From Escherichia coli (GTDB taxonomy: Bacteria; Pseudomonadota; Gammaproteobacteria; Enterobacterales; Enterobacteriaceae): DNA of 64,000 nt. Of the stretch, positions 1,626 through 31,444 are shown one piece after another; position 1 is the stretch's first letter; every line of letters begins with the position of its first letter. The stretch lies in assembly GCF_003790525.1 (NCBI RefSeq), contig NZ_CP033635.1. One strand, 5' to 3'. The position numbers and the translations under genes were made by a program. The notes below the pieces were generated by a model. It worked only from the letters and a program-made list of their open reading frames with translations. It was not told where the DNA came from and searched no databases.

Positions 1626-3467
1626 TTAATCGTCCAGGAAGCTACGCAGCACTTCAGAACGGCTCGGGTGACGCAGTTTGCGCAGCGCCTTCGCTTCGAT
1701 CTGACGGATACGTTCGCGGGTAACGTCGAACTGTTTACCCACTTCTTCCAGCGTGTGGTCGGTGTTCATATCGATACCGAAACGCATACGCAGAACTTTC
1801 GCTTCACGCGCGGTCAGGCCAGCCAGCACGTCGTGCGTTGCCGCACGCAGGCTTTCGGTGGTCGCAGAATCCAGCGGCAGCTCGAGGGTGGTATCCTCGA
1901 TGAAATCCCCCAGATGCGAATCTTCATCATCACCGATCGGCGTTTCCATGGAGATTGGCTCTTTGGCGATCTTCAGCACTTTGCGGATCTTGTCTTCCGG
2001 CATCAGCATACGTTCAGCCAGTTCTTCCGGCGTCGGTTCACGGCCCATCTCTTGCAGCATCTGGCGAGAAATACGGTTGAGTTTGTTGATAGTCTCAATC
2101 ATATGCACCGGAATACGGATGGTGCGCGCCTGATCCGCGATAGAACGGGTGATCGCCTGACGGATCCACCAGGTTGCGTAGGTGGAGAACTTGTAACCAC
2201 GGCGGTATTCGAATTTATCAACCGCTTTCATCAGGCCGATGTTACCTTCCTGAATCAGGTCAAGGAACTGCAAGCCACGGTTGGTGTATTTCTTGGCGAT
2301 AGAAATAACCAGACGTAAGTTCGCTTCAACCATCTCTTTCTTCGCACGGCGGGCTTTTGCTTCACCGATGGACATACGACGGTTGATATCTTTAACCTGC
2401 TCGATGGTCAGGCCGGTTTCTTCTTCAATCTGCTGCAGTTTCTGCAGGGCGCGATGCACTTCTTCAGAGACATCGTGCAGTTTTTCCGACCACGGCTTGT
2501 TCATCGCAATTGCCGCGTTGAACCAGGTATCGCTGGTTTCGTTGCCGGTAAACAGGGTAATGAAGTTTTTCTTCGGCATTTTGCACTGCTCAACGCAGAG
2601 CTTCATGATCAGACGTTCTTGCGTACGAACGCGGTCCATCATGACGCGCATGCTGTTGACCAGGTAGTCAAACTGCTTCGGCACCAGGCGGAACTGTTTA
2701 AATACTTCAGACAGTTTCAGGATCTCTTCCTGAGCAGCAGCGTGACTGCGACCTTTCGCTTTGATGGTGTCACGCGTTACAACGTACTGAGCGCGCAGTT
2801 CCGCAAATTTTTCGCGAGCCAGTTCCGGGTCGATGCTGTTGTCATCATCGGCGCTGTCGTCATCGCCATCTTCTTCGTCTTCATCTTCGTCATCGTCCAG
2901 ATCTTCCTGGGAAAGCTCAGAACCGACGTGAGTGGCGGTAGGTGCCAGATCTTCTTCTGCGTTCGGGTCAACAAAGCCGGTGATCAGATCGGACAGACGC
3001 GCTTCTTCTGCTTCAACACGATCGTACTGTTCCAGCAGATAGGTGATCGCTTCCGGATATTCAGCAACGGAGCATTGAACCTGGTTGATCCCGTCTTCAA
3101 TACGCTTAGCGATGTCAATTTCGCCTTCGCGGGTCAACAGTTCAACGGTGCCCATTTCACGCATGTACATGCGTACCGGGTCAGTCGTGCGCCCGATTTC
3201 AGATTCCACGCTGGAAAGCACCTGCGCGGCGGCTTCGGCAGCATCTTCGTCCGCGGTGTTTTCAGCCAGCATCAGATCATCGGCATCCGGTGCTTCTTCC
3301 ATCACCTGAATGCCCATGTCGTTGATCATTTGGATGATGTCTTCGATCTGATCTGAATCGACGATATCTTCCGGCAGATGGTCATTGACCTCGGCATAGG
3401 TCAGATAGCCTTGCTCCTTACCACGGGTGACAAGAAGTTTCAGCTGTGACTGCGGGTTTTGCTCCAT
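1626..3467 (-). CDS. rpoD: RNA polymerase sigma-70 factor
   Basis: 613-aa ORF, full-length match to E. coli RpoD (acidic region [14 protein letters not shown]; regions 2-4). Confidence 0.98.
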
Positions 3468-3661
3468 AAGACGGTATCCACACTTATTTCATGAGGTTGG
3501 TGTTGGGCGATTGACCCGATGTCCTTCAGCTGTTAACGCTGAAATCCAACGGTTGTTTACCGCCAACGATAATTACGAGGGCGTACTTATATATTTGCCG
3601 CTGCCTCTCAGTGCGGCTGTCGGGGGCTTCCCGATCGCTCTTCGGCACTTAAGCCGTTAAA

Positions 3662-5407
3662 TCACTTTTTCGCCAGCTCCTGGTTTAATGTCCAGAGCTC
3701 CAGGCGTTCTTCGTTGCTTAAACCATGCGTGCGCTCACGAGCGATTAACTCTTCCTGGCGCAGTTCAAGCAGCGAATCAAACATATGGTTGAGTGAGTCG
3801 GTGAAGGTTTGCTCAGCAATATTCTTATCTGCTATATCGTCCCACATCGACAGTTTTTCAAGGGTGGCAGCATTATTTGTACCACGATAGTGCTCTAAAA
3901 GTTGCCCGGTGGTCAGACCTGGCTGGGAGAGACAAGTGTTGACCAGTTCTCTGAATAAGCCAAGTCCAGGGAGCTTATTTTCATCCAGATTCTCAAGCGG
4001 CGGGACCAACGTCGCTAATTCTGGATTTTGCACCAGCAACCCTATAAGTATACGCATGGTCGTGCGTTTTAGCTGCGGAACAGGGCGAGAAACGCCGCTC
4101 TCTGCCGCTTTTGGCATTAATCGTTCAAGCTGGCTGTCATCAAGTATGCCTAATTTGTTGCCTAATTCCTGACGAAGATATATTCGCAGCGTTTCGCCCG
4201 GCACTTGCGATATCAATGGCAGTGCCAGCGTACTCAAACGTGCGCGCCCGTCAGGGGTACTCAGATCAACTTGCGGCATCAGACTGTTAAACAGAAATGC
4301 GGAGAGTGGCATCGCCTGCTCCATCCGCGCTTCAAACGCTTCTTTACCTTCTTTTCGTACCAGCGTGTCAGGGTCTTCGCCATCAGGCAAAAACATAAAG
4401 CGTAGCTGACGACCGTCTGTCATGTAAGGCAGCGCCGTTTCCAGCGCTCGCCAGGCGGCATCGCGGCCTGCACGGTCGCCGTCATAACAGCAAATGACAT
4501 TGTTGGTCGCGCGGAACAACAGTTGTATGTGATCGGCAGTGGTTGACGTACCTAACGACGCAACGGCGTAATTAATGCCGTATTGCGCCAGCGCCACCAC
4601 GTCCATATAGCCTTCGACCACAAGCAGACGATTGGGTTCAGCGTTATCCTGCTGCGCTTCATAAAGACCGTAAAGCTGGCGGCCTTTATGGAAAATGTCC
4701 GTTTCCGGCGAGTTCAGGTATTTGGGGGTATCGTTGCCCAGCACGCGTCCGCCAAAACCAATCACCCGACCGCGTTTATCACGAATGGGGAACATCACCC
4801 GCTCGCGGAAACGGTCGTAACTGCGCCCCTGATCGTTAGTGACCAACATGCCCGCATCAATCAATGACTGGCGATTTTCTGGATTGCCGCCAAACCGCTT
4901 CAGGACGTTGTCCCAGCCAGGGGGGGCAAAACCAATCGCAAAGCGGGCGATAACCTCGTGGCTTAATCCGCGTTTTTCCAGATACTGGCGCGCAGACGTG
5001 GCAACAGGTTGCTGTAAAGATTGTTGGTAAAACGTATTCAGACCGTCCATCAACTGATAAAGCGTTTGTCGTTGATGGCGCTCGATCTGGCTGGGGCCGC
5101 TACCTGCTTCAAATGGCACTTCAAGATTGTGCATTGCTGCCAGCTCTTCGACCGTTTCGACGAACTCAAGCTTGTCGTAGTTCATCAGGAAGTCGATCGC
5201 GTTGCCGTGCGCGCCACATCCAAAGCAGTGGTAAAACTGTTTCTCACCGTTAACGGTGAATGATGGGGTTTTCTCGTTGTGGAATGGACAACACGCGTGG
5301 AAATTCTTGCCCTGCTTTTTCAGCTTCACACGGGCATCGATCAGATCGACGATGTCAGTGCGTGCCAGCAGATCATTAATGAATACGCGTGGGATTCGTC
5401 CAGCCAT
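3662..5407 (-). CDS. dnaG: DNA primase
   Basis: 581-aa ORF with the zinc-ribbon CCPFHNEKTPSF...CFGCGAHG and a TOPRIM domain; sits in the rpsU-dnaG-rpoD operon. Confidence 0.97.
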   Translation of the reverse strand: MAGRIPRVFINDLLARTDIVDLIDARVKLKKQGKNFHACCPFHNEKTPSFTVNGEKQFYHCFGCGAHGNAIDFLMNYDKLEFVETVEELAAMHNLEVPFEAGSGPSQIERHQRQTLYQLMDGLNTFYQQSLQQPVATSARQYLEKRGLSHEVIARFAIGFAPPGWDNVLKRFGGNPENRQSLIDAGMLVTNDQGRSYDRFRERVMFPIRDKRGRVIGFGGRVLGNDTPKYLNSPETDIFHKGRQLYGLYEAQQDNAEPNRLLVVEGYMDVVALAQYGINYAVASLGTSTTADHIQLLFRATNNVICCYDGDRAGRDAAWRALETALPYMTDGRQLRFMFLPDGEDPDTLVRKEGKEAFEARMEQAMPLSAFLFNSLMPQVDLSTPDGRARLSTLALPLISQVPGETLRIYLRQELGNKLGILDDSQLERLMPKAAESGVSRPVPQLKRTTMRILIGLLVQNPELATLVPPLENLDENKLPGLGLFRELVNTCLSQPGLTTGQLLEHYRGTNNAATLEKLSMWDDIADKNIAEQTFTDSLNHMFDSLLELRQEELIARERTHGLSNEERLELWTLNQELAKK

Positions 5408-5517
5408 AGGCCCCGATTTTTAGCAATTCATAAACGAAAATAAGCCGCGCATTCCTTTCGGAAGCACGGCCTTACAACTACAACTCGGTCTGATCGGAGA
5501 GCAACGCTCTCGGGGAA

Positions 5518-5772
<255 letters not shown>

Positions 5773-5970
5773 TCAACGCCAGCTTATTTCAAAATGGTGC
5801 GGAATTTTACTGCAATTGCTGCTGCTTTGTAAAGCACCGCGGCCTTTTTTGAAAGGGACTTTTATAAGGGTGAGGAGTATACACGAGGCTTTCTCCAGGG
5901 GCGAACAAAGTTTTACATCAACCCGCATTGGTCCTACACTGCGCGGTAATAAAGCGAGGTAAAACAAGTC

Positions 5971-6984
5971 ATGCGTGTACTGGGTATTGAAACTTCCTGC
6001 GATGAAACCGGCATCGCCATTTACGACGATGAAAAAGGTTTGTTAGCCAACCAATTGTATAGTCAGGTGAAATTGCACGCTGACTACGGCGGCGTCGTGC
6101 CTGAACTGGCCTCCCGCGATCACGTGCGTAAAACCGTACCGTTGATCCAGGAGGCGCTGAAAGAGTCTGGTTTAACGGCAAAAGACATTGATGCTGTGGC
6201 CTATACCGCAGGCCCAGGATTAGTCGGCGCACTGCTGGTTGGCGCGACCGTGGGGCGTTCTCTGGCGTTTGCCTGGGACGTTCCGGCAATCCCGGTACAC
6301 CATATGGAAGGGCATCTGTTAGCGCCGATGCTGGAAGATAACCCACCGGCATTTCCGTTTGTGGCGCTGCTGGTTTCCGGCGGTCATACGCAGTTAATCA
6401 GCGTGACTGGCATTGGTCAGTACGAGCTGCTTGGCGAGTCTATCGATGATGCTGCTGGTGAAGCGTTTGATAAAACCGCGAAGCTGCTGGGGCTGGATTA
6501 TCCTGGCGGGCCATTACTGTCGAAAATGGCGGCTCAGGGTACTGCCGGGCGCTTTGTCTTCCCGCGCCCGATGACCGACCGTCCGGGGCTGGATTTCAGC
6601 TTTTCTGGTCTGAAAACCTTCGCGGCGAACACGATTCGTGACAACGGCACCGACGACCAGACGCGTGCTGATATCGCCCGCGCCTTTGAAGATGCGGTGG
6701 TCGATACGTTGATGATTAAGTGTAAGCGAGCACTGGATCAGACGGGCTTTAAGCGACTGGTAATGGCAGGCGGCGTGAGTGCTAACCGCACGTTACGGGC
6801 GAAGCTGGCTGAAATGATGAAAAAACGCCGTGGCGAAGTGTTCTACGCGCGTCCGGAATTTTGTACTGATAACGGCGCGATGATCGCCTATGCCGGAATG
6901 GTGCGGTTTAAAGCAGGCGCGACGGCGGATCTCGGCGTTAGCGTGCGTCCGCGCTGGCCGCTGGCAGAGTTACCGGCCGCGTAA
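5971..6984 (+). CDS. tsaD: tRNA N6-adenosine threonylcarbamoyltransferase (t6A synthesis)
   Basis: 337-aa [23 protein letters not shown]...; divergent from rpsU as in E. coli. Confidence 0.95.
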
Positions 6985-7026
6985 AACTATTAGGTGCCGG
7001 AGAGTCACTTCCGGCACCGTCCTCAC

Positions 7027-8490
7027 TTAAAGCAACACCACGGGCATCCACAGTAAGCCGGTAATCACCAGCAATACGAGGAATATCAGCCCAAAAATTG
7101 CCCCCAGTCGCCAGTAATCCACCGTTGGCAGATAACCACTACCGTAGTAAATCGGGCTGGGTCCGGTGGCGTATGGCGTAAGAATGCTCCCCAGACCAAT
7201 TGCCGCGCCAACCATCAGGCAGAATACCGGCAGCGGGATTTCCGGCATCGCCAGCGCGGCGGCAATCATCATCGGCGCGAGAGCGGAGGTATACGCCGTG
7301 GCGCTGGCGAAAAAGTAGCGCAGTAGATAAAACACCACAATCAACGCCACCATCACTATCGTTGGCGAATAACCGCTTAAGCTGCCTGCTAACAGTTTGC
7401 CAAACCAGCTAATAAAACCGGTGTTGTTGAGTCCGGTAGCGAGGGTGATAAGCGAGGCCAGCCAGAAGAAAACGTTCCACGCGGCTTTATTACTGACAAT
7501 GTCGTCCCAACTGATAATGCGCAGAAGCAGCATCAGCGCCACCACGCTGTAACCGACCATCGCGGCATCGATATAATCACCGCCGAAAATCCACAGCACC
7601 AGCGCGCCTACCATCAGCCCCAGCATCCGTTTTTCACGCGAACAGAGCGGGCCCATTGCCTGCAGTTCCGTCTCTGCCCAGCGCGGCACCTGATCACCAG
7701 ACTTCAGTACCGGCGGGTACAGCACGTAAGCCAGCCAGGGAACCAGCAGAACCAGTAAAATACTGAGCGGCAACATCCCGAGGAACCAGTCGCCCCAACT
7801 CAGTGTGGCGTGAGATGCGCTTTTCATCAGGCCAATTAACAGCAAGTTAGGTGCCATCGCCGTCAGGAAAATGGCGCTGGTCACGCAGTCGGCAACAATC
7901 CCCATCCACATGATGTACGAGCCAATGCTGCGCGAACTGCTGTCGTTTGGTTGTGATTGATAGAGCGGTGGCAGGTTACGGATGATGGGATAGATAATCC
8001 CCGCACCACGCGCCGAGTTGGACGGTGTTACAGGTGCCAGGATAAGCTCGGAGAACATCACCGCATAGCCGAGAAACAGCGTGCGATGCCCCATCTTTTT
8101 CACCAGAATCAGCGCGATACGTCGCCCCAGCCCGGTTTTTTCATAGCCTGTGCCAAACATAAAGGCGGCGAAAATCAGCCAGATAACCGAATTAGAAAAA
8201 CCAGAAACCGCCCAGGAGAGGGATTTGGCGGTGAACTTAAAACCTGGCTGGGCGAGCTGCTCCGGGCTGAACAGCAGCCAGGGAGAGAGAATGGCGATAA
8301 TGGAGATACCCACCATCGCCACCACGGCACCCGGCACGGGTTCGAGGATCAGTCCAACGATCACGCCAGTAAAAACAGCAAAGTAGAGCCAGGTATGACT
8401 CTCCAGCCCTGCGGGAACCGGAATTAGAGCAATAATGGCGATGACCGCCAGCGGCGCAAGGTATCGCCACCATTCAGTGGAAGGTTTCAT
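7027..8490 (-). CDS. ttdT: L-tartrate/succinate antiporter
   Basis: 487-aa polytopic membrane protein (DASS family) immediately downstream of ttdAB. Confidence 0.9.
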   Translation of the reverse strand: MKPSTEWWRYLAPLAVIAIIALIPVPAGLESHTWLYFAVFTGVIVGLILEPVPGAVVAMVGISIIAILSPWLLFSPEQLAQPGFKFTAKSLSWAVSGFSNSVIWLIFAAFMFGTGYEKTGLGRRIALILVKKMGHRTLFLGYAVMFSELILAPVTPSNSARGAGIIYPIIRNLPPLYQSQPNDSSSRSIGSYIMWMGIVADCVTSAIFLTAMAPNLLLIGLMKSASHATLSWGDWFLGMLPLSILLVLLVPWLAYVLYPPVLKSGDQVPRWAETELQAMGPLCSREKRMLGLMVGALVLWIFGGDYIDAAMVGYSVVALMLLLRIISWDDIVSNKAAWNVFFWLASLITLATGLNNTGFISWFGKLLAGSLSGYSPTIVMVALIVVFYLLRYFFASATAYTSALAPMMIAAALAMPEIPLPVFCLMVGAAIGLGSILTPYATGPSPIYYGSGYLPTVDYWRLGAIFGLIFLVLLVITGLLWMPVVLL

Positions 8491-8537
8491 CGTGTTATGC
8501 CTGCGAAAAAGGAGAGGGGCGAGCCTCTCCGGGAGGG

Positions 8538-9143
8538 TTATTTGATGTAATGGACGTGCTCGCAGATCTCTTCCACGATGGGATCGCGGCGTTCGGCGAA
8601 CAGCTTTTTGTTTTCGGCTATCAGGTTGTTGCCGTGGGTATCAATAGAGACAATCAGCGGGCCGAACTCTTTGACCCGGCAGACCCACAGTGACTCCGGC
8701 ATCCCGAGTTCTGTCCAGTGCACTTCTTCAATCTCTTCCACCTGGGTTGCCGCCAGTACTGCGCAGCCTGCCGGGAAAATCACATGTAGCGCCTTGAATT
8801 TCTGGCAGCCTTCTTCGGTCAGCGGCCCCATTCCGCCTTTGCCGACCACCAGTTTCACGCCGGTCTGTTCGATAAATTCACGTTCAAAACTTTCCATACG
8901 CATACTGGTTGTCGGGCCGACGGATACCATCTCCCATTTGTCGCCGTTTTTGCGCACGATGGGGCCAGCGTGGAAAATCGCTTTGCCGTTGAGATCGTAA
9001 GGGATCGGACGTTTGAGTTCGATCAAGCGACGGTGACAAACGTCACGGCAGGTCACCAGCGTACCGGTCAGGTAGATCACATCGCCGACGCGAATATCTT
9101 GCAGATCTTCAGCTTTGATCGGGGTTGTCAGGATCTTTTTCAT
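8538..9143 (-). CDS. ttdB: L(+)-tartrate dehydratase beta subunit
   Basis: 201-aa ORF; its start overlaps the ttdA stop (ATGA at 9140-9143). Confidence 0.9.
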
Positions 9144-21139: not shown

Positions 21140-21168
21140 TTGACGCTGTTGTTTTTTCAACCTAAAGT
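21140..21168 (+). promoter_or_regulatory. Sigma-70 promoter of Sib antisense RNA, copy 1
   Basis: TTGACG (21140-21145), 17-bp spacer, TAAAGT (21163-21168). Confidence 0.55.
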
Positions 21169-21174
21169 AAAGGA

Positions 21175-21323
21175 ACAAGGGTAAGGGAGGATTTCTCCCC
21201 CCTCTGATGAGTTGTTAGTAAGTCGGGAAACTTAACAGTAACAACACAACCAGTATGATGACGAACTTCATCATAACCCTTTCCTTCTATAAGGCCCCTT
21301 CCTCGGGAGGGGCTTTCCCGTTT
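21175..21323 (+). ncRNA. sibD: Sib-type antisense RNA (antitoxin of a type I toxin-antitoxin pair), copy 1; ends approximate
   Basis: Plus-strand transcript predicted from the promoter above; fully complementary to the ibs ORF and its RBS; ends at the hairpin ccccttcc-tcgg-gagggg (21295-21312) followed by a U-rich stretch. Confidence 0.5.
21215..21274 (-). CDS. ibsD: Ibs-family type I toxin, 19 aa (MMKFVIILVVLLLLSFPTY)
   Basis: Minus strand: ATGATGAAGTTCGTCATCATACTGGTTGTGTTGTTACTGTTAAGTTTCCCGACTTACTAA, with a GGAAAGGG SD upstream. Confidence 0.7.
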   Translation of the reverse strand: MMKFVIILVVLLLLSFPTY

Positions 21324-21515: not shown

Positions 21516-21544
21516 TTGACGCTGTTGTTTTTTCAACCTAAAGT
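21516..21544 (+). promoter_or_regulatory. Sigma-70 promoter of Sib antisense RNA, copy 2
   Basis: TTGACG (21516-21521), 17-bp spacer, TAAAGT (21539-21544). Confidence 0.55.
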
Positions 21545-21550
21545 AAAGGA

Positions 21551-21700
21551 ACAAGGGTGAGGGAGGATTTCTCCCCCCTCTGATTGGCTGTTAATAAGTG
21601 GCGAAACTTACAAGTAACAACACAATCAGTATGATGACGAGCTTCATCATAACCCTTTCCTTCTGTAAGGCCCCTTCCTCGGGAGGGGCTTTCCCGTTTC
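21551..21700 (+). ncRNA. sibE: Sib-type antisense RNA, copy 2; ends approximate
   Basis: Same architecture as copy 1, with the terminator hairpin at ~21671-21688. Confidence 0.5.
21591..21650 (-). CDS. ibsE: Ibs-family type I toxin, 19 aa (MMKLVIILIVLLLVSFATY)
   Basis: Minus strand: ATGATGAAGCTCGTCATCATACTGATTGTGTTGTTACTTGTAAGTTTCGCCACTTATTAA. Confidence 0.7.
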   Translation of the reverse strand: MMKLVIILIVLLLVSFATY

Positions 21701-21888: not shown

Positions 21889-23550
21889 TTATTCTACGTT
21901 TTCGGCGACGGGAGTTGTTGAGGTTAAGGGTGAAGTCAATGCAGCCAGTGAGCCGCCTGAAACGCCAATTTCATTGAGCAAGGAGTCAATCAGCGGTGCC
22001 TGTGTGCGGTAAGAAAGGGCGGCAGACAATGCCTGTTCTGCCAGGTTTCCGCCACTAACGCTGCCTGATGCCGCATCCCCCGCAGCACCACCTCGGTTTA
22101 ATCCATCGACCTGAATAATCTTAATGCCGTCAATGGACTTCATCGGCTCAACGGATTTCTCTATTACTGCAGGTAACGACTGTAATAGCGCCAGTTTGAA
22201 TTTAAGGCTGGTTTGCTCGTCAGAAAGTACGTTGATAGCGTCGTTCAGCGCACGTTGCGCTTCTGCTTCCGCCAGGCCTTTTTTGCGTGTTGCTTCGGCT
22301 AACTCAACGATCGCCGCCGCCTGCATCTCTGCGGCTTCTTTCTCTGCTTTCGCCCGCACGGTCAGTTCAACCGCTTTGGTTTCTGCATCCTGCGCGGCAG
22401 CGATTAGGGCAACTTGTTTAGCACGATCGGCTTCTGCGGTCTGGCGAGTGGTTTCTACGTTTTGCTGGGCGCTTACCGCTTCTGCAAGTGCAAGGTTGGC
22501 ACGCGCTTCCGCTTGTGACTGCTGTTCCGATTTGGCGGCAATAGCGATCGATTTCGTCTGGTTGGCGATTTCGGTGACCTGCTGTTGTTCGATCTCTTTA
22601 ATGCGAACTTCACGTTCAGCTTCAACTTTTCTTGAGCGGACGGCCTGTTCGCGGTCGATTTCTGTTTCCTGAATCTGTCGTTCAGCCAGAATTCGCGTCT
22701 GCTCTGCTTCACGACGACGTTCAGCTTCAAAAGCCGCAATTTTCGCATTCTGCTCAGCGGTACGGGTTTTAACCTGCTGCTCCTGCTCAAGCGTCATAAA
22801 CGCTTCTTGTTGTTCAATCTCCAACTTGCGCGAAAGTGCATCACGGTTTTTCTCACGCACCGCAACTTCTACATCCTGTTCAACTTCGTTACGTTCGCGA
22901 CGACGGCGCTCCGTCTCCTGCGTCAGCTTGGTTAAACCTTCGGCGTCAAAGGCGTTGTTAGGATTGAAATGTTCTTTCGACGTCTGGTTAAAGTTGGTAA
23001 GTGAAACGCTTTCCAGTTCCAGGCCGTTTTTCGACAGATCTTCAGCAACGGTATTTTGTACGCCCTGCACGAAGTTCTCGCGGGTATCCTGTAACTCATG
23101 CATGGTCATTTGCGCAGCTGTTGCACGGAGGGCATCGACAAATTTATCTTCAACCAACATACGTAAGTCTTCAGGCGACAGGGTGCGTTGCCCCAGCGTC
23201 TGGGCAGCGGTGGCGATCCCTTCTACTGAAGGTTTTACCCGCACAAAGAAAGCGACAACGACATCGACGCGCATACGATCTTTCGTAATCAGGCTATCAA
23301 TGGTTGAGCGGCTGACTTCCAGCTTCAGAGTATTCATATTGATGGGGATTATTTCATGGAAGATCGGCATCACGATTGCGCCACCGCTCATTACCACTTT
23401 TTGCCCACCTAAACCAGTACGAACAAAAGCTTGCTCTGCCGAAGCGCGACGATAGAGCCTGGCGAAAATAATTCCAATAATAAACAGAATGCATACGGCA
23501 ATAATCGCGGTAAACATCCAGGAGGGCACAGAATTAACAATATCATCCAT
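21889..23550 (-). CDS. yqiK: SPFH/flotillin-like membrane protein
   Basis: 553-aa ORF with an N-terminal TM helix, band-7 domain and long coiled-coil, E/Q/A-rich region. Confidence 0.85.
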   Translation of the reverse strand: MDDIVNSVPSWMFTAIIAVCILFIIGIIFARLYRRASAEQAFVRTGLGGQKVVMSGGAIVMPIFHEIIPINMNTLKLEVSRSTIDSLITKDRMRVDVVVAFFVRVKPSVEGIATAAQTLGQRTLSPEDLRMLVEDKFVDALRATAAQMTMHELQDTRENFVQGVQNTVAEDLSKNGLELESVSLTNFNQTSKEHFNPNNAFDAEGLTKLTQETERRRRERNEVEQDVEVAVREKNRDALSRKLEIEQQEAFMTLEQEQQVKTRTAEQNAKIAAFEAERRREAEQTRILAERQIQETEIDREQAVRSRKVEAEREVRIKEIEQQQVTEIANQTKSIAIAAKSEQQSQAEARANLALAEAVSAQQNVETTRQTAEADRAKQVALIAAAQDAETKAVELTVRAKAEKEAAEMQAAAIVELAEATRKKGLAEAEAQRALNDAINVLSDEQTSLKFKLALLQSLPAVIEKSVEPMKSIDGIKIIQVDGLNRGGAAGDAASGSVSGGNLAEQALSAALSYRTQAPLIDSLLNEIGVSGGSLAALTSPLTSTTPVAENVE

Positions 23551-23576: not shown

Positions 23577-24206
23577 TTACAATATTTGGGGCCAGGGATT
23601 GTTTTCCGCCAAATATCGAGTTGCAGAAAGTCGGCAAATAATTAACACTTTGTCTCCTTTAGTGAAAATTTTTCCTTCTTCAGGCTCCAGTAGTAAATAA
23701 TGTATTTGGCCAAATTGATCGGTGAGTTTTCCTTCGCAGGGATTACCTGAAGTGGCTTGATGACCGGTAATTAACGCCATGCTACCAATATATTCTTCTT
23801 CTGTAATAGCTGAGCTATGATCGCGTGGAATCCAGGGCGCAACTATTTTACCGGTATAATGCACCGCAATAATCGTAAACAGTAAACTGACAGGAACCAC
23901 AAACAGGTTCGAGAGTGGTGATTGCCAGACCATGATGCAGGTATGCTGCAACAGGATGCCAATAAGACCAAAAAAACCAGCCAGTAAGCAAAGAACGACG
24001 AGAGCTGGCAATCTTCCGATATTGAGATAATGAAGTGCCTGGCTAATATGACCTGTGGTTATGGAATCATAATGGTCAAGATGTGCATCAAGTGCACCGG
24101 AGAGCATGTGACCGCAGATAAGCGCAAAAATTTCTAAAAGGCCGATCAACAGTACAAAGGAAATAGCGAAAAGATAAGGGGTGTTATAGTCGGCGAATAA
24201 AATCAT
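23577..24206 (-). CDS. yqiJ: NfeD-like inner-membrane protein, partner of YqiK
   Basis: 209-aa polytopic ORF directly upstream of yqiK. Confidence 0.85.
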
Positions 24207-24474
24207 ATGTCACTCCAATGTCCATTTAGTGACGCAATATTTACTTTGGGATAGTTTCCTTGCTTACATTTGTCTTTGCTAATAATAACACATGTTGGAG
24301 AAGTTCTGGAAGAGAAAGTCTTTTAATATGGTTTTTTATTTTTCACTAAAAAGTGTGATCGGGGACAATATATTTACGCACGTTATGTTTAAAGGCACTA
24401 CACTGATTGGGGAATACTGAAATCAGAAAAAGCATATGGCCTTAAAAGGTATGCGATAACCGGAGGATGTGCTT

Positions 24475-24675
24475 ATGGATCATAGTCTTAATTCTTTAAA
24501 TAATTTCGATTTCCTGGCGCGTAGTTTTGCCAGAATGCACGCAGAAGGTCGCCCGGTCGATATTCTGGCCGTTACTGGTAACATGGATGAAGAACATAGA
24601 ACCTGGTTTTGCGCACGTTATGCCTGGTATTGCCAACAAATGATGCAAACCAGAGAACTTGAATTAGAACACTGA
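24475..24675 (+). CDS. glgS: GlgS (surface composition regulator)
   Basis: 66-aa product [74 protein letters not shown] at 24463-24468. Confidence 0.85.
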
Positions 24676-24709
24676 TATTACGGGCCGTCTGGCCCGTTTT
24701 TGTGTTGCT

Positions 24710-25009
24710 TTATTCTGCTTTATCAATAGGCGGGATAGCCGGAGGAGATTGAAGATCTGCTACCGAATTATTGCGCGCTTCCAGTTCACTGATGCGCTGC
24801 TCCAGTAACGCCAGTTTTTCACGAGTCCGTAACAGGACTTGCGTCTGAACGTCGAATTCTTCGCGGCTTACCAGATCGAGACGTGTCAGCTGCGCTTGTA
24901 GGGTTTGGCGGATTTTTTTCTCCACATCTTCCCCGAACTCCCTGATTCCTTTAGGCATTGATTCGTGAACCTGGCGAGCGATTTGCTCAATTTTTTTCGG
25001 GTCAATCAT
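24710..25009 (-). CDS. ubiK: Ubiquinone biosynthesis accessory factor UbiK
   Basis: [39 protein letters not shown]... (coiled coil); start chosen at the ATG at 25009 with a GGAA SD. Confidence 0.8.
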
Positions 25010-25124
25010 TGTAGTTTCCCTGTACTGATAGGTGTTGAGTGCCATTGTAGTGCGATAAGAGTAAGTCATAAACCAGAATTATGTGAAGCTATGCGTTGCT
25101 GCCGCTAATCATTAGCGTTATAGT

Positions 25125-25375
25125 GAATCCGCTTATTCTCAGGGCGGGGCGAAATTCCCCACCGGCGGTAAATCAACTCAGTTGAAAGCCCGCGAGCGCT
25201 TTGGGTGCGAACTCAAAGGACAGCAGATCCGGTGTAATTCCGGGGCCGACGGTTAGAGTCCGGATGGGAGAGAGTAACGATTCTGTCGGGCATGGACCCG
25301 CTCACGTTATTTTGGCTATATGCCGCCACTCCTAAGACTGCCCTGATTCTGGTAACCATAATTTTAGTAAGGTTT
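25125..25375 (+). ncRNA. FMN riboswitch (RFN element) in the ribB leader
   Basis: Conserved RFN segments agggcggggcgaaattccccaccggcggta ... ccggggccgacggttagagtccggatgggagaga directly upstream of ribB. Confidence 0.8.
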
Positions 25376-25382
25376 TTTTACC

Positions 25383-26036
25383 ATGAATCAGACGCTACTT
25401 TCCTCTTTTGGTACGCCTTTCGAACGTGTTGAAAATGCACTGGCTGCGCTGCGTGAAGGACGCGGTGTAATGGTGCTTGATGATGAAGACCGTGAAAACG
25501 AAGGCGATATGATCTTCCCGGCAGAAACCATGACCGTTGAGCAGATGGCGCTGACCATTCGCCACGGTAGCGGTATTGTTTGCCTGTGCATTACTGAAGA
25601 TCGCCGTAAACAACTCGATCTGCCAATGATGGTAGAAAATAACACCAGCGCCTATGGCACCGGTTTTACCGTGACCATTGAAGCGGCTGAAGGTGTGACT
25701 ACCGGTGTTTCTGCCGCTGACCGTATTACGACCGTTCGCGCAGCGATTGCCGATGACGCAAAACCTTCTGATCTGAATCGCCCGGGCCACGTTTTCCCAC
25801 TTCGCGCGCAGGCAGGTGGAGTACTGACGCGTGGCGGCCATACTGAAGCAACTATTGATCTAATGACGCTGGCAGGCTTTAAACCGGCTGGTGTGCTGTG
25901 TGAGCTGACTAATGACGATGGCACGATGGCGCGTGCACCAGAGTGCATTGAGTTTGCCAATAAACACAATATGGCGCTCGTGACTATTGAAGACCTGGTG
26001 GCATACCGTCAGGCACATGAGCGTAAAGCCAGCTGA
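25383..26036 (+). CDS. ribB: 3,4-dihydroxy-2-butanone 4-phosphate synthase
   Basis: 217-aa [45 protein letters not shown]... Confidence 0.95.
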
Positions 26037-26068
26037 AAACCGCTGCTTAATTTACTGCCTTAATCAAG

Positions 26069-26105
26069 AAACCGAAGTTGTAGCAGGCTTCGGTTTTTAT
26101 TTTTC
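26069..26105 (+). terminator. ribB rho-independent terminator
   Basis: gaaaccgaag-(loop)-cttcggttt followed by a T run. Confidence 0.6.
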
Positions 26106-26297
26106 CCTGCTATGCAAGATGTTAATTCCGCTTCTCTTTCTATGAGAAAATTTCATTAATATCAGGCATTCTTTTTCATTATGATCAAAATCATATAATT
26201 GTTCCGTTATTATGCGACCATATGAATATATCCGAAAAAGGATATGTGAAATTTATGCGCTAAATGTTTAGTATTGTTAAATATTAAGGGTAAAAGG

Positions 26298-28275: not shown

Positions 28276-28947
28276 TTAGCCTCTGATGATTTTAAGTGCC
28301 CATGCGCCACTCATAATGACCAGCAGCACCAGACACATACCAAAAGCCAGCATACAAGCCTGAGCCATATTCATAAAATGCCATGGTGGTAGCAGATACC
28401 AGCCTTCAGATTGCTGATACATTTCCACAAACCACTGTTGCGTGCTGCTCAGTGTGACGCCATCAGGAACGATTGGTGCGTCATAGCCACAATCCCCGGT
28501 AGGCTTGAACCAATTTGGTGCCCACTGTGCCAGCGGCAGGTTAAAGGGAAAAGTTGGATCGGTAGAGCAACCCTGTACGCCAAACAGTGAATCGGGATCC
28601 GGATTATGTACTGCATGGTGGATATCGTTCAGTTTGAGCGAAAACTTCAGTCCCAAAATGCTGCCGTAAAATGCCATCACGCAGCCAATTAGCTTTAGGA
28701 TGATGTTCTTTGGGTTGATCGCTGCAACCAATCCTCCAATAACCATCACAAACATGGCGTAGCGAATGTATACACATTGCTCACAGGGTGCCATGTAGAG
28801 ATAGATCTGGAAGAAAGAGTGCGCCAGGATAATTAACGCGCCCATCGCAACGGCCATTAACAACCACAACAAGCGTTGCTCCTGCCATCTGACCAGTGTG
28901 TCAACTGGTGATGTGCGAAGATCTTTCCACATTCCCTTAATACCCAT
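28276..28947 (-). CDS. dsbI: DsbB-like membrane disulfide oxidoreductase
   Basis: 223-aa polytopic ORF with paired cysteines (CEQC; C...C in the periplasmic loop); last gene of the assT operon. Confidence 0.85.
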
Positions 28948-28961
28948 AGCCTGTTTCCCTG

Positions 28962-29630
28962 TTATTTGCTTGCTAACTCACGGATAAGGTCTGCCATCGC
29001 GTCGATGGATTTGATGCTCTTGGTGTAGATCAAGTACTTACCATTAACGACATAGGCTGGAACCCCCTGGATTTTGGCGACATCATAAGAGGCTTTCCAT
29101 TTTTCCAGTGTTTCTTGAACCGCTGGTTCTTTCAGTGCCGCTTCAAAATCCGCCTGACTCATACCTGCGGCATCCAGACCGGTTTTGATAAAAGCAGCCG
29201 GATCTTTACCGTCAGACCAGCGTTCTTTTTTGTCGTGATAAGCCACGTAGTAGGCAAACTTGGCTTTCTTAAACTGAGAGTTAGCATCAAATAAGGAAAT
29301 GCCTGCTGCTTTATCTTTATTGATCAAGACCGCAAAGACTTCGCTTGCTTGTTTGCCGTATTCACCTTTGGTTTCCAGATGGAACGGCGTGAAAGCAACG
29401 ATATCTTTCACTTTTTCCGATACCGGACCGGTAACCGCTTTGTCGTACTTGTAACAGAACGGGCAGGCGTAGCTGAATACCTTAATCAGCGTTTTGTCTG
29501 CATTCGGAATAGGTTTTTCCAGAACCATGTAATCCGTGCCTTCGGTAAATGCAGAAGCGGTAAATGAAACAGCCAAAGCTGCGGTAAGCAGTATGCTTTT
29601 AAATAGTGATGAGATCCCTAATTTCGACAT
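28962..29630 (-). CDS. dsbL: DsbA-like periplasmic thiol:disulfide oxidoreductase
   Basis: 222-aa ORF with a signal peptide and CPFC active site ([10 protein letters not shown]). Confidence 0.85.
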
Positions 29631-29647
29631 TTTTATTCCCTTCTTAA

Positions 29648-31444
29648 TTATTTGAACATCTGTTGTGGACGGACTAACAATGCACGATAGTGAGTCTGAT
29701 TGGGTTTATCTGACAGCACGTCGATTTCCACTTTCACTTCTTTGGTTTTGTAATCGATTTCGTTCAACTTACCGACGGTTGGCTGCCCGACATCGAACAA
29801 ATGAATAGAACCACCGAAGCCAAACATGGTGTTACGGTCGGCTTGATATTCAATGATGGAGGTGATTGGGCTATAGAAATCGTAGCCACGTTCTTTACCG
29901 TATTCCCACACTTGCTGAACGGTGCCTTTCTTCTCATCAATCTTATATTCCACAAAGCGGGAATATTTCATGGTTGGTAAGGCAGGTTGTTCCAGATGAC
30001 GACCATCGCCATTATCAAAAATGGTGAGCGTTCCTTTGCTGGAAATCCAGGCGGTATGCTGGGTGTAGGTAAAGTCGAAGTCTGAGTTTTCGCACAGGCC
30101 ATTTTCGTTACAGGTAATTGGCTTACCGTTAGCATCAACCGGTTTCAGCAGCTTGCTGGCCAGCGGTTTTTCCCAACCTTTAGAGGGTGCAAGGATCCAT
30201 TTCACTTGCTTATCACGACCAATCTTCACAACACCCTGGTGACGAGAAGAGAGAATAATTGAGTCATCTTTTGCGTCATAAGCGATGGAATTAACGTGCG
30301 CCCAGTTACGGCCTGGCCCTACACCCAGAGCGTCGCCGAACGGTGTATCTGGTTCCAGTTTTGCCTGTTGTCCTGCATGGGCAAGGTCAACGTTAACGCA
30401 AACTGCACCTGCATCCAGCGCGCCGAGCAGTGCATCGCGTTTCGGATCGAGGATCTTCGTCAGATCCCATACATCTACAACGCGACCAGATTTATCGACT
30501 TCGAGGATATGGTCACGAATGGTGGTGACGTGTACGCCGTCATCGCGACGATAGTTACTCTTACCTACGCGCAACAGTACCGTGCCATTTGGCGTCTCAA
30601 TGGATTCATGAGTAGCGTCAGCAAATCCGCGCGGTAGTTTGTGATCTTCGAGCACCTGCCCCATCATGTCGAACTCGTACCAGTGCTGACCTTGTACAGC
30701 GGTAAAGGTGCCGCGTGGCGTTTCGCGGATACCCATCAGATAACCACGTTTGTTAATGTTGCGGTCACGACCATCGTAGAAGGTGTTTTGATCCAACCAC
30801 CAGCGGTATTCGCCTTCCGTATCGACGATAAAGGTGAATGGCGCGATATCAAAAGGGAGTGCGCCAGTTGCCGGACCCGCATCAAGGATACCGGCATTTT
30901 TATCTTTCTCACCATGCCAGTGGAGATCGGAACCTTGGGCGGTAAAGGTGTGGGTATTAACCAGATAGAGGCGATCTTCAAAACCCGGTGCGACTTTAAT
31001 AACTTTGGTCTGTTGTAAATCGGAGATAGAGCGGTTATCCATGTAATTATTGACGATGGCCGAAGTGTGCACCACATAATCATCTTTCATGACCTTGCCG
31101 TTTTCTTTCCACTCAACGGTCACTTTGTTAGCAAATTTCTGATAAAGACCAAAAATCGGTACACCATCGTAAGTTTTTAGTGATTCCTGACCCACGGGAT
31201 AGCTGATTTCTACGCCTTTTTCGCCCTTCCCATGGACGGTAACTCTGACGTCAGAAATAACATGGCTATCTAAGTCAACCAAAGCGGTCAGTGGTGCATT
31301 GCCGTAGGGATCGACAATGACCGCACCCAGTTGCCCGGCAGGCGGCGCTGGTTTAAAACCCGCAGCCATCACCCCCGATGCTGACAAACCCAGGGTTATC
31401 GCCACAGTTCCGGCTACGAGTGTTTTTCTATATTTATCAAACAT
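29648..31444 (-). CDS. assT: Periplasmic arylsulfate sulfotransferase
   Basis: 598-aa ORF with a signal peptide; recognised as AssT by family resemblance and by the dsbL-dsbI partners. Confidence 0.88.
   Translation of the reverse strand: MFDKYRKTLVAGTVAITLGLSASGVMAAGFKPAPPAGQLGAVIVDPYGNAPLTALVDLDSHVISDVRVTVHGKGEKGVEISYPVGQESLKTYDGVPIFGLYQKFANKVTVEWKENGKVMKDDYVVHTSAIVNNYMDNRSISDLQQTKVIKVAPGFEDRLYLVNTHTFTAQGSDLHWHGEKDKNAGILDAGPATGALPFDIAPFTFIVDTEGEYRWWLDQNTFYDGRDRNINKRGYLMGIRETPRGTFTAVQGQHWYEFDMMGQVLEDHKLPRGFADATHESIETPNGTVLLRVGKSNYRRDDGVHVTTIRDHILEVDKSGRVVDVWDLTKILDPKRDALLGALDAGAVCVNVDLAHAGQQAKLEPDTPFGDALGVGPGRNWAHVNSIAYDAKDDSIILSSRHQGVVKIGRDKQVKWILAPSKGWEKPLASKLLKPVDANGKPITCNENGLCENSDFDFTYTQHTAWISSKGTLTIFDNGDGRHLEQPALPTMKYSRFVEYKIDEKKGTVQQVWEYGKERGYDFYSPITSIIEYQADRNTMFGFGGSIHLFDVGQPTVGKLNEIDYKTKEVKVEIDVLSDKPNQTHYRALLVRPQQMFK

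Follow-up and report, generated by a model that had tools for sequence, protein, structure and literature searches.

The 34-bp gap between glgS and ubiK in an Escherichia coli genome as a very probably ancestral vacant site of the Yqi-like fimbrial operon

In the stretch of 64,000 nucleotides analysed here as a whole (the window), the convergent genes glgS and ubiK (yqiC) are separated by a few tens of nucleotides, and this raises the question of whether a fimbrial operon that other E. coli strains carry at this position was lost from this genome or had never arrived there. A preliminary description of this DNA had placed the ygiL-yqiGHI chaperone-usher cluster of K-12, with an IS insertion, between ubiK and glgS, and had offered two explanations for its absence: either the site is empty ancestrally, or the cluster was cleanly deleted. 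This layout is the one present in NC_000913.3, where the order is ribB, ubiK (b3042), ygiL, yqiG split by IS2I (insC5/insD5), yqiH, yqiI, glgS (b3049), yqiJ and yqiK. As 6.6 kb comprising ygiL-yqiG::IS2-yqiH-yqiI lie between ubiK and glgS, the two genes are not adjacent in K-12, and the synteny comparison leaves the proposed difference between the two genomes standing. With respect to the K-12 Yqi-like pi-class chaperone-usher locus, the window shares the chromosomal position but is without all four fimbrial genes, and it represents the vacant allele of a known variable locus. The features of the region are collected in Table 1.

Table 1. Features at and around the glgS-ubiK junction, in window coordinates
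Feature	Position	Strand	Evidence
yqiK	21889-23550	-	ORF, tblastn; conserved backbone, glgS side
yqiJ	23577-24206	-	ORF, tblastn; conserved backbone, glgS side
glgS, cell surface composition regulator, 66 aa	24475-24675	+	ORF; NCBIfam equivalog; same annotation in matching RefSeq genomes
glgS-side flank (3' end of glgS and hairpin), operon haplotypes divergent	24647-24706	+	identity profile
34-bp gap between convergent glgS and ubiK; vacant site of the K-12-type ygiL-yqiGHI ("Yqi-like") operon	24676-24709		
Predicted intrinsic terminator of glgS	24680-24707	+	terminator scan, RNA folding, alignment with outgroups
72-bp segment present in window and outgroups, absent in K-12-type strains	24707-24778	-	BLAST breakpoints; DNA alignment
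ubiK (yqiC), 99 aa, ancestral-type allele	24710-25009	-	ORF; NCBIfam equivalog; tail compared with outgroups
ubiK-side flank, operon haplotypes divergent	24779-24898	-	60-bp identity profile
FMN riboswitch	25131-25279	+	Rfam RF00050, 120.9 bits; conserved backbone, ubiK side
ribB	25383-26036	+	ORF, tblastn; conserved backbone, ubiK side
Second vacant fimbrial site, ribB to yqiD	26035-26179		ST131 annotation; breakpoints

The stop codon of glgS (TGA) occupies positions 24673-24675 and that of ubiK positions 24710-24712 (TTA on the plus strand, TAA on the minus strand), leaving exactly 34 bp, tattacgggccgtctggcccgtttttgtgttgct, between the two genes. Both gene products were recognized by their NCBIfam equivalogs, GlgS by NF002793 with 148.3 bits (cutoff 105) and UbiK by NF047835 with 150.7 bits (cutoff 100). 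When the K-12 proteins YgiL, YqiG, YqiH, and YqiI were used as tblastn queries, no homologues were detected in the whole 64-kb window (E<=1e-5); positions 24676-24790 contain no sequence remnants of ygiL or yqiI, and neither a scar nor an IS remnant is present in the sequence of the junction. The spacing of 34 bp without a fimbrial operon, as described before, is thus fixed by the two stop codons and by the tblastn result. Over 22 kb around the site, the window matches E. coli SMS-3-5, as well as a group of similar genomes, at about 100% identity.

The gap contains little besides the predicted terminator hairpin of glgS. The terminator scan located a hairpin at 24680-24697, with a 7-bp stem, of which 6 pairs are G-C, and a 4-nt loop, followed by TTTTTGTGTT, and folding of the RNA gave -19.2 kcal/mol for the plus strand (z = -4.3 vs shuffled sequence) and -17.1 kcal/mol for the minus strand (z = -3.9). 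On the plus strand the G+C-rich stem-loop directly precedes a U run, as is characteristic of an intrinsic terminator, and termination of glgS is predicted there. On the ubiK strand UAAUAU and not a U run follows the hairpin, and no intrinsic terminator is predicted for ubiK on this strand. The arrangement therefore resembles a hairpin terminator shared between convergent genes in that the hairpin fills the gap and has its T run on the glgS strand, but differs from it in the missing U run on the ubiK strand; that ubiK transcripts might also end at this hairpin can at most be supposed, and the sequence by itself does not argue for two-way termination. In DNA alignments the hairpin is matched in each of the four outgroups compared, namely E. 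albertii, a divergent Escherichia (locus L002), Citrobacter, and Salmonella, and in K-12 it is kept beside glgS. A promoter scan of 24200-25400 found nothing.

The difference between the window and the operon carriers extends beyond the intergenic gap. In BLAST comparisons with K-12 and with a B1 strain (O121:H19), homology runs from ribB up to window position 24779, which lies inside ubiK just past the codons for ...SELE, and picks up again three bases beyond the stop codon of ubiK, at 24706. The 72 bp in between (24707-24778) span UbiK codons 78-99, the stop codon, and 3 nt, and their counterpart in K-12 is a block of 6,637 bp including IS2 (locus L001, 4072-10708), or about 5.3 kb without IS2. 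Because the left breakpoint falls inside ubiK, the two haplotypes encode different UbiK C-termini: the window differs from the carriers in the last 22 ubiK codons, its 72 bp encoding the family-typical C-terminus (…PPAIPPID…), whereas K-12 UbiK ends in NRSTEIKKQPDPETLPPTL. A (K/S)PAPAIPP(V/I)D-type motif closes UbiK across Escherichia, Salmonella, Citrobacter, Enterobacter, Kosakonia, and others, as it does in the window, and E. fergusonii UbiK also has a tail of the ancestral type. In the DNA alignment the 72 bp of the window align with E. albertii, the divergent Escherichia, Citrobacter, and Salmonella, whereas the K-12 and B1 tails do not. Among the named matches of a protein search with K-12 UbiK, the K-12-type form was found only in E. 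coli and Shigella.

In order to place these two forms, species genomes of GTDB were scanned with UbiK, which yielded at least 80 loci; those listed do not include E. fergusonii, E. marmotae, or E. ruysiae. Among the loci listed, glgS, wherever present, lies directly downstream of ubiK in convergent orientation, and neither ygiL-yqiGHI nor any other fimbrial genes were found between the two. The gap measures a few tens of bp in E. albertii (L009), in the divergent Escherichia, which is about 90% identical to the window at the nucleotide level, in eight Citrobacter loci, and in S. enterica arizonae (L021), and up to about 250 bp in Superficieibacter, Pseudocitrobacter, Raoultella, and Klebsiella, where both genes are likewise adjacent. 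The window locus thus unites what marks an empty-site allele: ubiK and glgS adjacent without chaperone-usher genes, synteny with the outgroups, and a junction homologous to theirs. With the outgroup synteny, the aligned hairpin, and the 72 bp of ancestral ubiK 3' sequence, the first of the two explanations offered before gains support, and the 34-bp gap is very probably the ancestral, never-filled arrangement, ygiL-yqiGHI being a later addition in some E. coli lineages. We infer, in other words, that the operon was gained and not lost.

The identity profile in 60-bp bins revealed a divergence spike on either side of the breakpoints. In the 120 bp next to the ubiK breakpoint (24779-24898) the window is 83-87% identical to K-12 and the B1 strain and in the next 480 bp 98-100%, whereas in the 60 bp next to the glgS breakpoint (24647-24706) it is 80% identical, in the next bin 96.7%, and in later bins 98-100%. 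The empty-site allele of ST131 is 98% identical to the window in the bins nearest to the breakpoints. Over the ubiK-side 120 bp the identity to window-type E. coli is 84-87% for the K-12-type sequence and 89-90% for E. albertii and the divergent Escherichia; in its first 111 bp ubiK does not vary among the E. coli compared (100% identity), save for one mismatch in the B1 strain. The absence of the fimbrial cluster noted in the earlier description stands, but the difference from K-12 is not a clean intergenic indel, since the left breakpoint is inside ubiK and the K-12-type flanks look imported.

These profiles bear on the other explanation, a precise excision by which an ancestor of the window would have lost a K-12-type ygiL-yqiGHI island. 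Such an event would suit a junction without scar or IS remnant, but it would have left behind the K-12-type tail NRSTEIKKQPDPETLPPTL and flanks diverged by 13-20%, whereas the window has an outgroup-like tail and flanks 98% identical to those of other empty-site E. coli. A clean deletion can be rejected because removal of the K-12-type island could not regenerate the 72-bp segment. The only real deletion encountered at the junction, in E. coli BS-01 (NZ_CP172816.1), is small and imprecise, and an excision origin of the window allele is extremely improbable. As an observation of its own, the rare BS-01 deletion (locus L084, 3036-3085) removed part of the ubiK tail and left an 88-aa UbiK-family ORF 2 bp from glgS. 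The window was also considered as a deletion derivative of the K-12-type yqi island and rejected as such, as it displays the outgroup-type tail and no island sequence.

The distribution of both states was determined in 5,426 complete E. coli genomes, counts being genomes with a match to the respective query. The empty junction, probed with 151 bp across the window junction, was found in 2,060 genomes (38%) and K-12 yqiG-yqiH-yqiI in 3,362, and since the two counts add up to 5,422 of the 5,426 genomes, the locus is a near-clean two-state polymorphism. The K-12 ubiK tail together with the spacer before ygiL also matched 3,362 genomes, and because both queries match the same number, the K-12-type tail is suggested to travel with the operon, although equal counts compare set sizes and do not prove that the genomes are the same. 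Read in this way as set sizes, not membership, the equality also suggests that no genome has the K-12-type tail while lacking the operon, as would be the case after a clean deletion. To the 151 bp of the window, the empty junction is 100% identical in O157:H7, 95.9% in ST131, and 95.4% in ST95, and O145:H28 also belongs to this group.

The operon itself comes in two haplotypes, about 1,574 genomes being at least 99% identical to K-12 over yqiGHI and about 1,711 about 94.5% identical (K-12 locus L001 vs B1 locus L082), and the YqiI proteins of these two loci share 92.7% identity. This divergence exceeds that expected between phylogroups A and B1, for which diversifying selection or two imports are possible reasons, and a single recent gain does not explain an identity of about 94.5%.

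A published survey described Yqi and Yqi-like as related types that are restricted to particular clades and exclude each other (Wurpel et al., 2013; PMC3559732). According to Table S2 of that survey, all 8 phylogroup A and all 7 B1 strains are positive for Yqi-like, IAI39 is positive for a Yqi-like usher with an asterisk, and both types are scored negative in SMS-3-5 as well as in the strains of O157:H7 and O55:H7. The main text ties Yqi-like to phylogroups A, B1, D, and E (Wurpel et al., 2013), but its assignment to group E was not retained here, as both Table S2 and the O157:H7 locus of the present analysis are negative.

The empty allele occurs in phylogroups B2 and E, in the own lineage of the window, and in every outgroup examined, and this distribution has to be weighed against the possibility that the lineage once had the operon and that recombination with an empty-site donor restored an allele of ancestral type. 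IAI39 is now presumably placed in the same phylogroup (F) as SMS-3-5, and because it nevertheless carries a Yqi-like usher, the Yqi-like allele can move between lineages. This co-occurrence of both states within what we take to be one phylogroup would fit such a secondary loss, and also an excision; the sharp divergence shifts at both flanks indicate that the locus recombines, and the 151-bp junction of the window is fully identical to that of O157:H7, a member of another phylogroup. However, an allelic replacement needs two events where none is required, and the window flanks show no mosaic boundary within about 1 kb when compared with other empty-site strains. A secondary loss by replacement is therefore improbable, if less so than a clean deletion, and a site that was never filled is the preferred reading.

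For the carriers, an arrival of the operon by recombination from a diverged donor is probable because their flanks are only 80-87% identical to the window and then 98-100%. The island has a G+C content of 40% and its flanks of 46-51%. At the boundaries of the K-12-type insert, no integrase, tRNA, or direct repeats were found in the K-12 and B1 loci, and the only mobile element in the K-12 locus is the IS2 inside yqiG, the B1 locus having none. Insertion of the K-12-type block as a mobile element was consequently discarded, as its boundaries consist of graded homology without repeats, integrase, or tRNA, and the boundary pattern points to homologous recombination. We infer from these patterns both how the operon was acquired and what kind of donor it came from. 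The operon, which is found mainly in phylogroups A and B1 and in Shigella, would have entered as a low-G+C block through homologous recombination with DNA of a diverged Escherichia-like donor, which would be unsampled and would already have had the operon between ubiK and glgS. One crossover would have fallen within ubiK, about 190 bp from its end, and the other about 60 bp into the glgS side, and carriers would thereby also have obtained a foreign UbiK C-terminus, whereas the window strain would have kept the original allele with its family-typical UbiK tail.

Taken together, we consider it somewhat more probable than its contrary that ubiK is dimorphic at its C-terminus, tracking the operon as closely as the genome counts show, and that an allelic replacement of about 5.5 kb into A, B1, and Shigella, from an Escherichia-like donor more distant than E. 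albertii, brought in the last 63 or so ubiK codons together with the 3' end of glgS and left the window untouched. Outside E. coli and Shigella, no donor with the operon between ubiK and glgS was found in the UbiK scan among the at least 80 loci listed.

Across Enterobacterales UbiK is hypervariable, rich in Pro and Ala, and of low complexity in its last 15-60 residues (C-termini in loci L002-L081), the protein ranging from 86 to 133 aa in these loci while its first 75 or so residues are highly conserved. In the Logan assemblies SRR33454298 (L087, 152-846) and ERR3179213 (L088, 235-929), an enterobacterium whose DNA is 77-82% identical to E. coli has a UbiK ending in ...NRSTVTVVKDDQETLPPTL; this tail (...ETLPPTL) is related to the K-12-type tail, and no other such relative was encountered outside E. 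coli and Shigella. The ubiK-glgS distance in this enterobacterium is 191 bp and its locus contains no fimbrial genes, so that its tail without an operon hints at the relatives of the donor. At the locus of P0022, a distant relative from the protein search with K-12 UbiK, neither DNA similarity to the K-12 spacer nor fimbrial genes were found.

Beyond the ribB-ubiK pair, about 1.3 kb from the ubiK-glgS site, there is a second fimbrial site. In ST131, a 5.5-kb chaperone-usher operon, the ExPEC Yqi (EA/I) operon, occupies the interval from ribB to yqiD in place of the 145 bp found at 26035-26179 of the window, where ribB-yqiD-zupT are contiguous, as in K-12. The layout of this ST131 operon matches the ExPEC adhesin I/Yqi cluster described for B2 strains (Antao et al., 2009; PMC2771359). 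The ST131 operon is related to the K-12 genes, with 37-60% protein identity, and is absent in the window. An equation of the "yqi" of that study with K-12 ygiL-yqiGHI was rejected, given the ribB-yqiD site and this level of identity. The EA/I-type operon was found at ribB-yqiD in 994 genomes, including ST131. The window and O157:H7 possess neither the Yqi-like nor the EA/I operon, and this doubly empty state occurs in at least 1,066 genomes (2,060 - 994).

In some Citrobacter, Enterobacter, Lelliottia, Pseudocitrobacter, and Klebsiella, a Yqi-like chaperone-usher operon lies directly beside ribB (loci L010, L015, L019, L022, L023, L025, L028-L030, L054, L073, and L075, at about 3300-8900), with 31-50% protein identity to K-12 Yqi. 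Because other genera carry Yqi-like operons at the position of the EA/I operon of B2, the ribB-side fimbrial site is suggested to be the older one.

As the vacancy of this site in SMS-3-5 is already on record, both types being scored negative in Table S2 (Wurpel et al., 2013; PMC3559732), the empty site of the window is ordinary, already-known variation of the pan-genome. Mildly new are only the breakpoint inside ubiK, the C-terminal dimorphism of UbiK, and the signature of a recombinational import. The K-12 reference would carry the derived UbiK C-terminus and about 38% of the complete E. coli genomes, together with the outgroups examined, the ancestral form, and both fimbrial sites flanking ribB-ubiK are vacant in at least about 20% of the genomes. 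Although of small importance overall, the UbiK tail forms and the doubly vacant sites may help annotators and researchers working on UbiK.

Around the junction, the order of yqiK and yqiJ is the same in K-12, O157:H7, ST131, and E. albertii. In the 3' part of yqiK (22007-22126), the window is 73-78% identical to K-12 and the B1 strain, for which E. albertii and the divergent Escherichia reach 86-92%, and this segment looks like a short mosaic patch in which K-12-type strains are again the outliers. Between hldE and yqiK, two tandem Sib antitoxin RNAs (21140-21289 and 21516-21665; Rfam RF00113, 142 and 144 bits) have their counterpart in K-12 in the type I toxin-antitoxin pair sibD/ibsD and sibE/ibsE. 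Another presence/absence polymorphism lies about 4 kb from the ubiK-glgS site, as dsbI and dsbL, together with assT for an aryl-sulfate sulfotransferase, come after ygiD in the window (28276-31444) and in ST131, whereas they are absent in K-12 and O157:H7, where ygiD is directly followed by ygiC.
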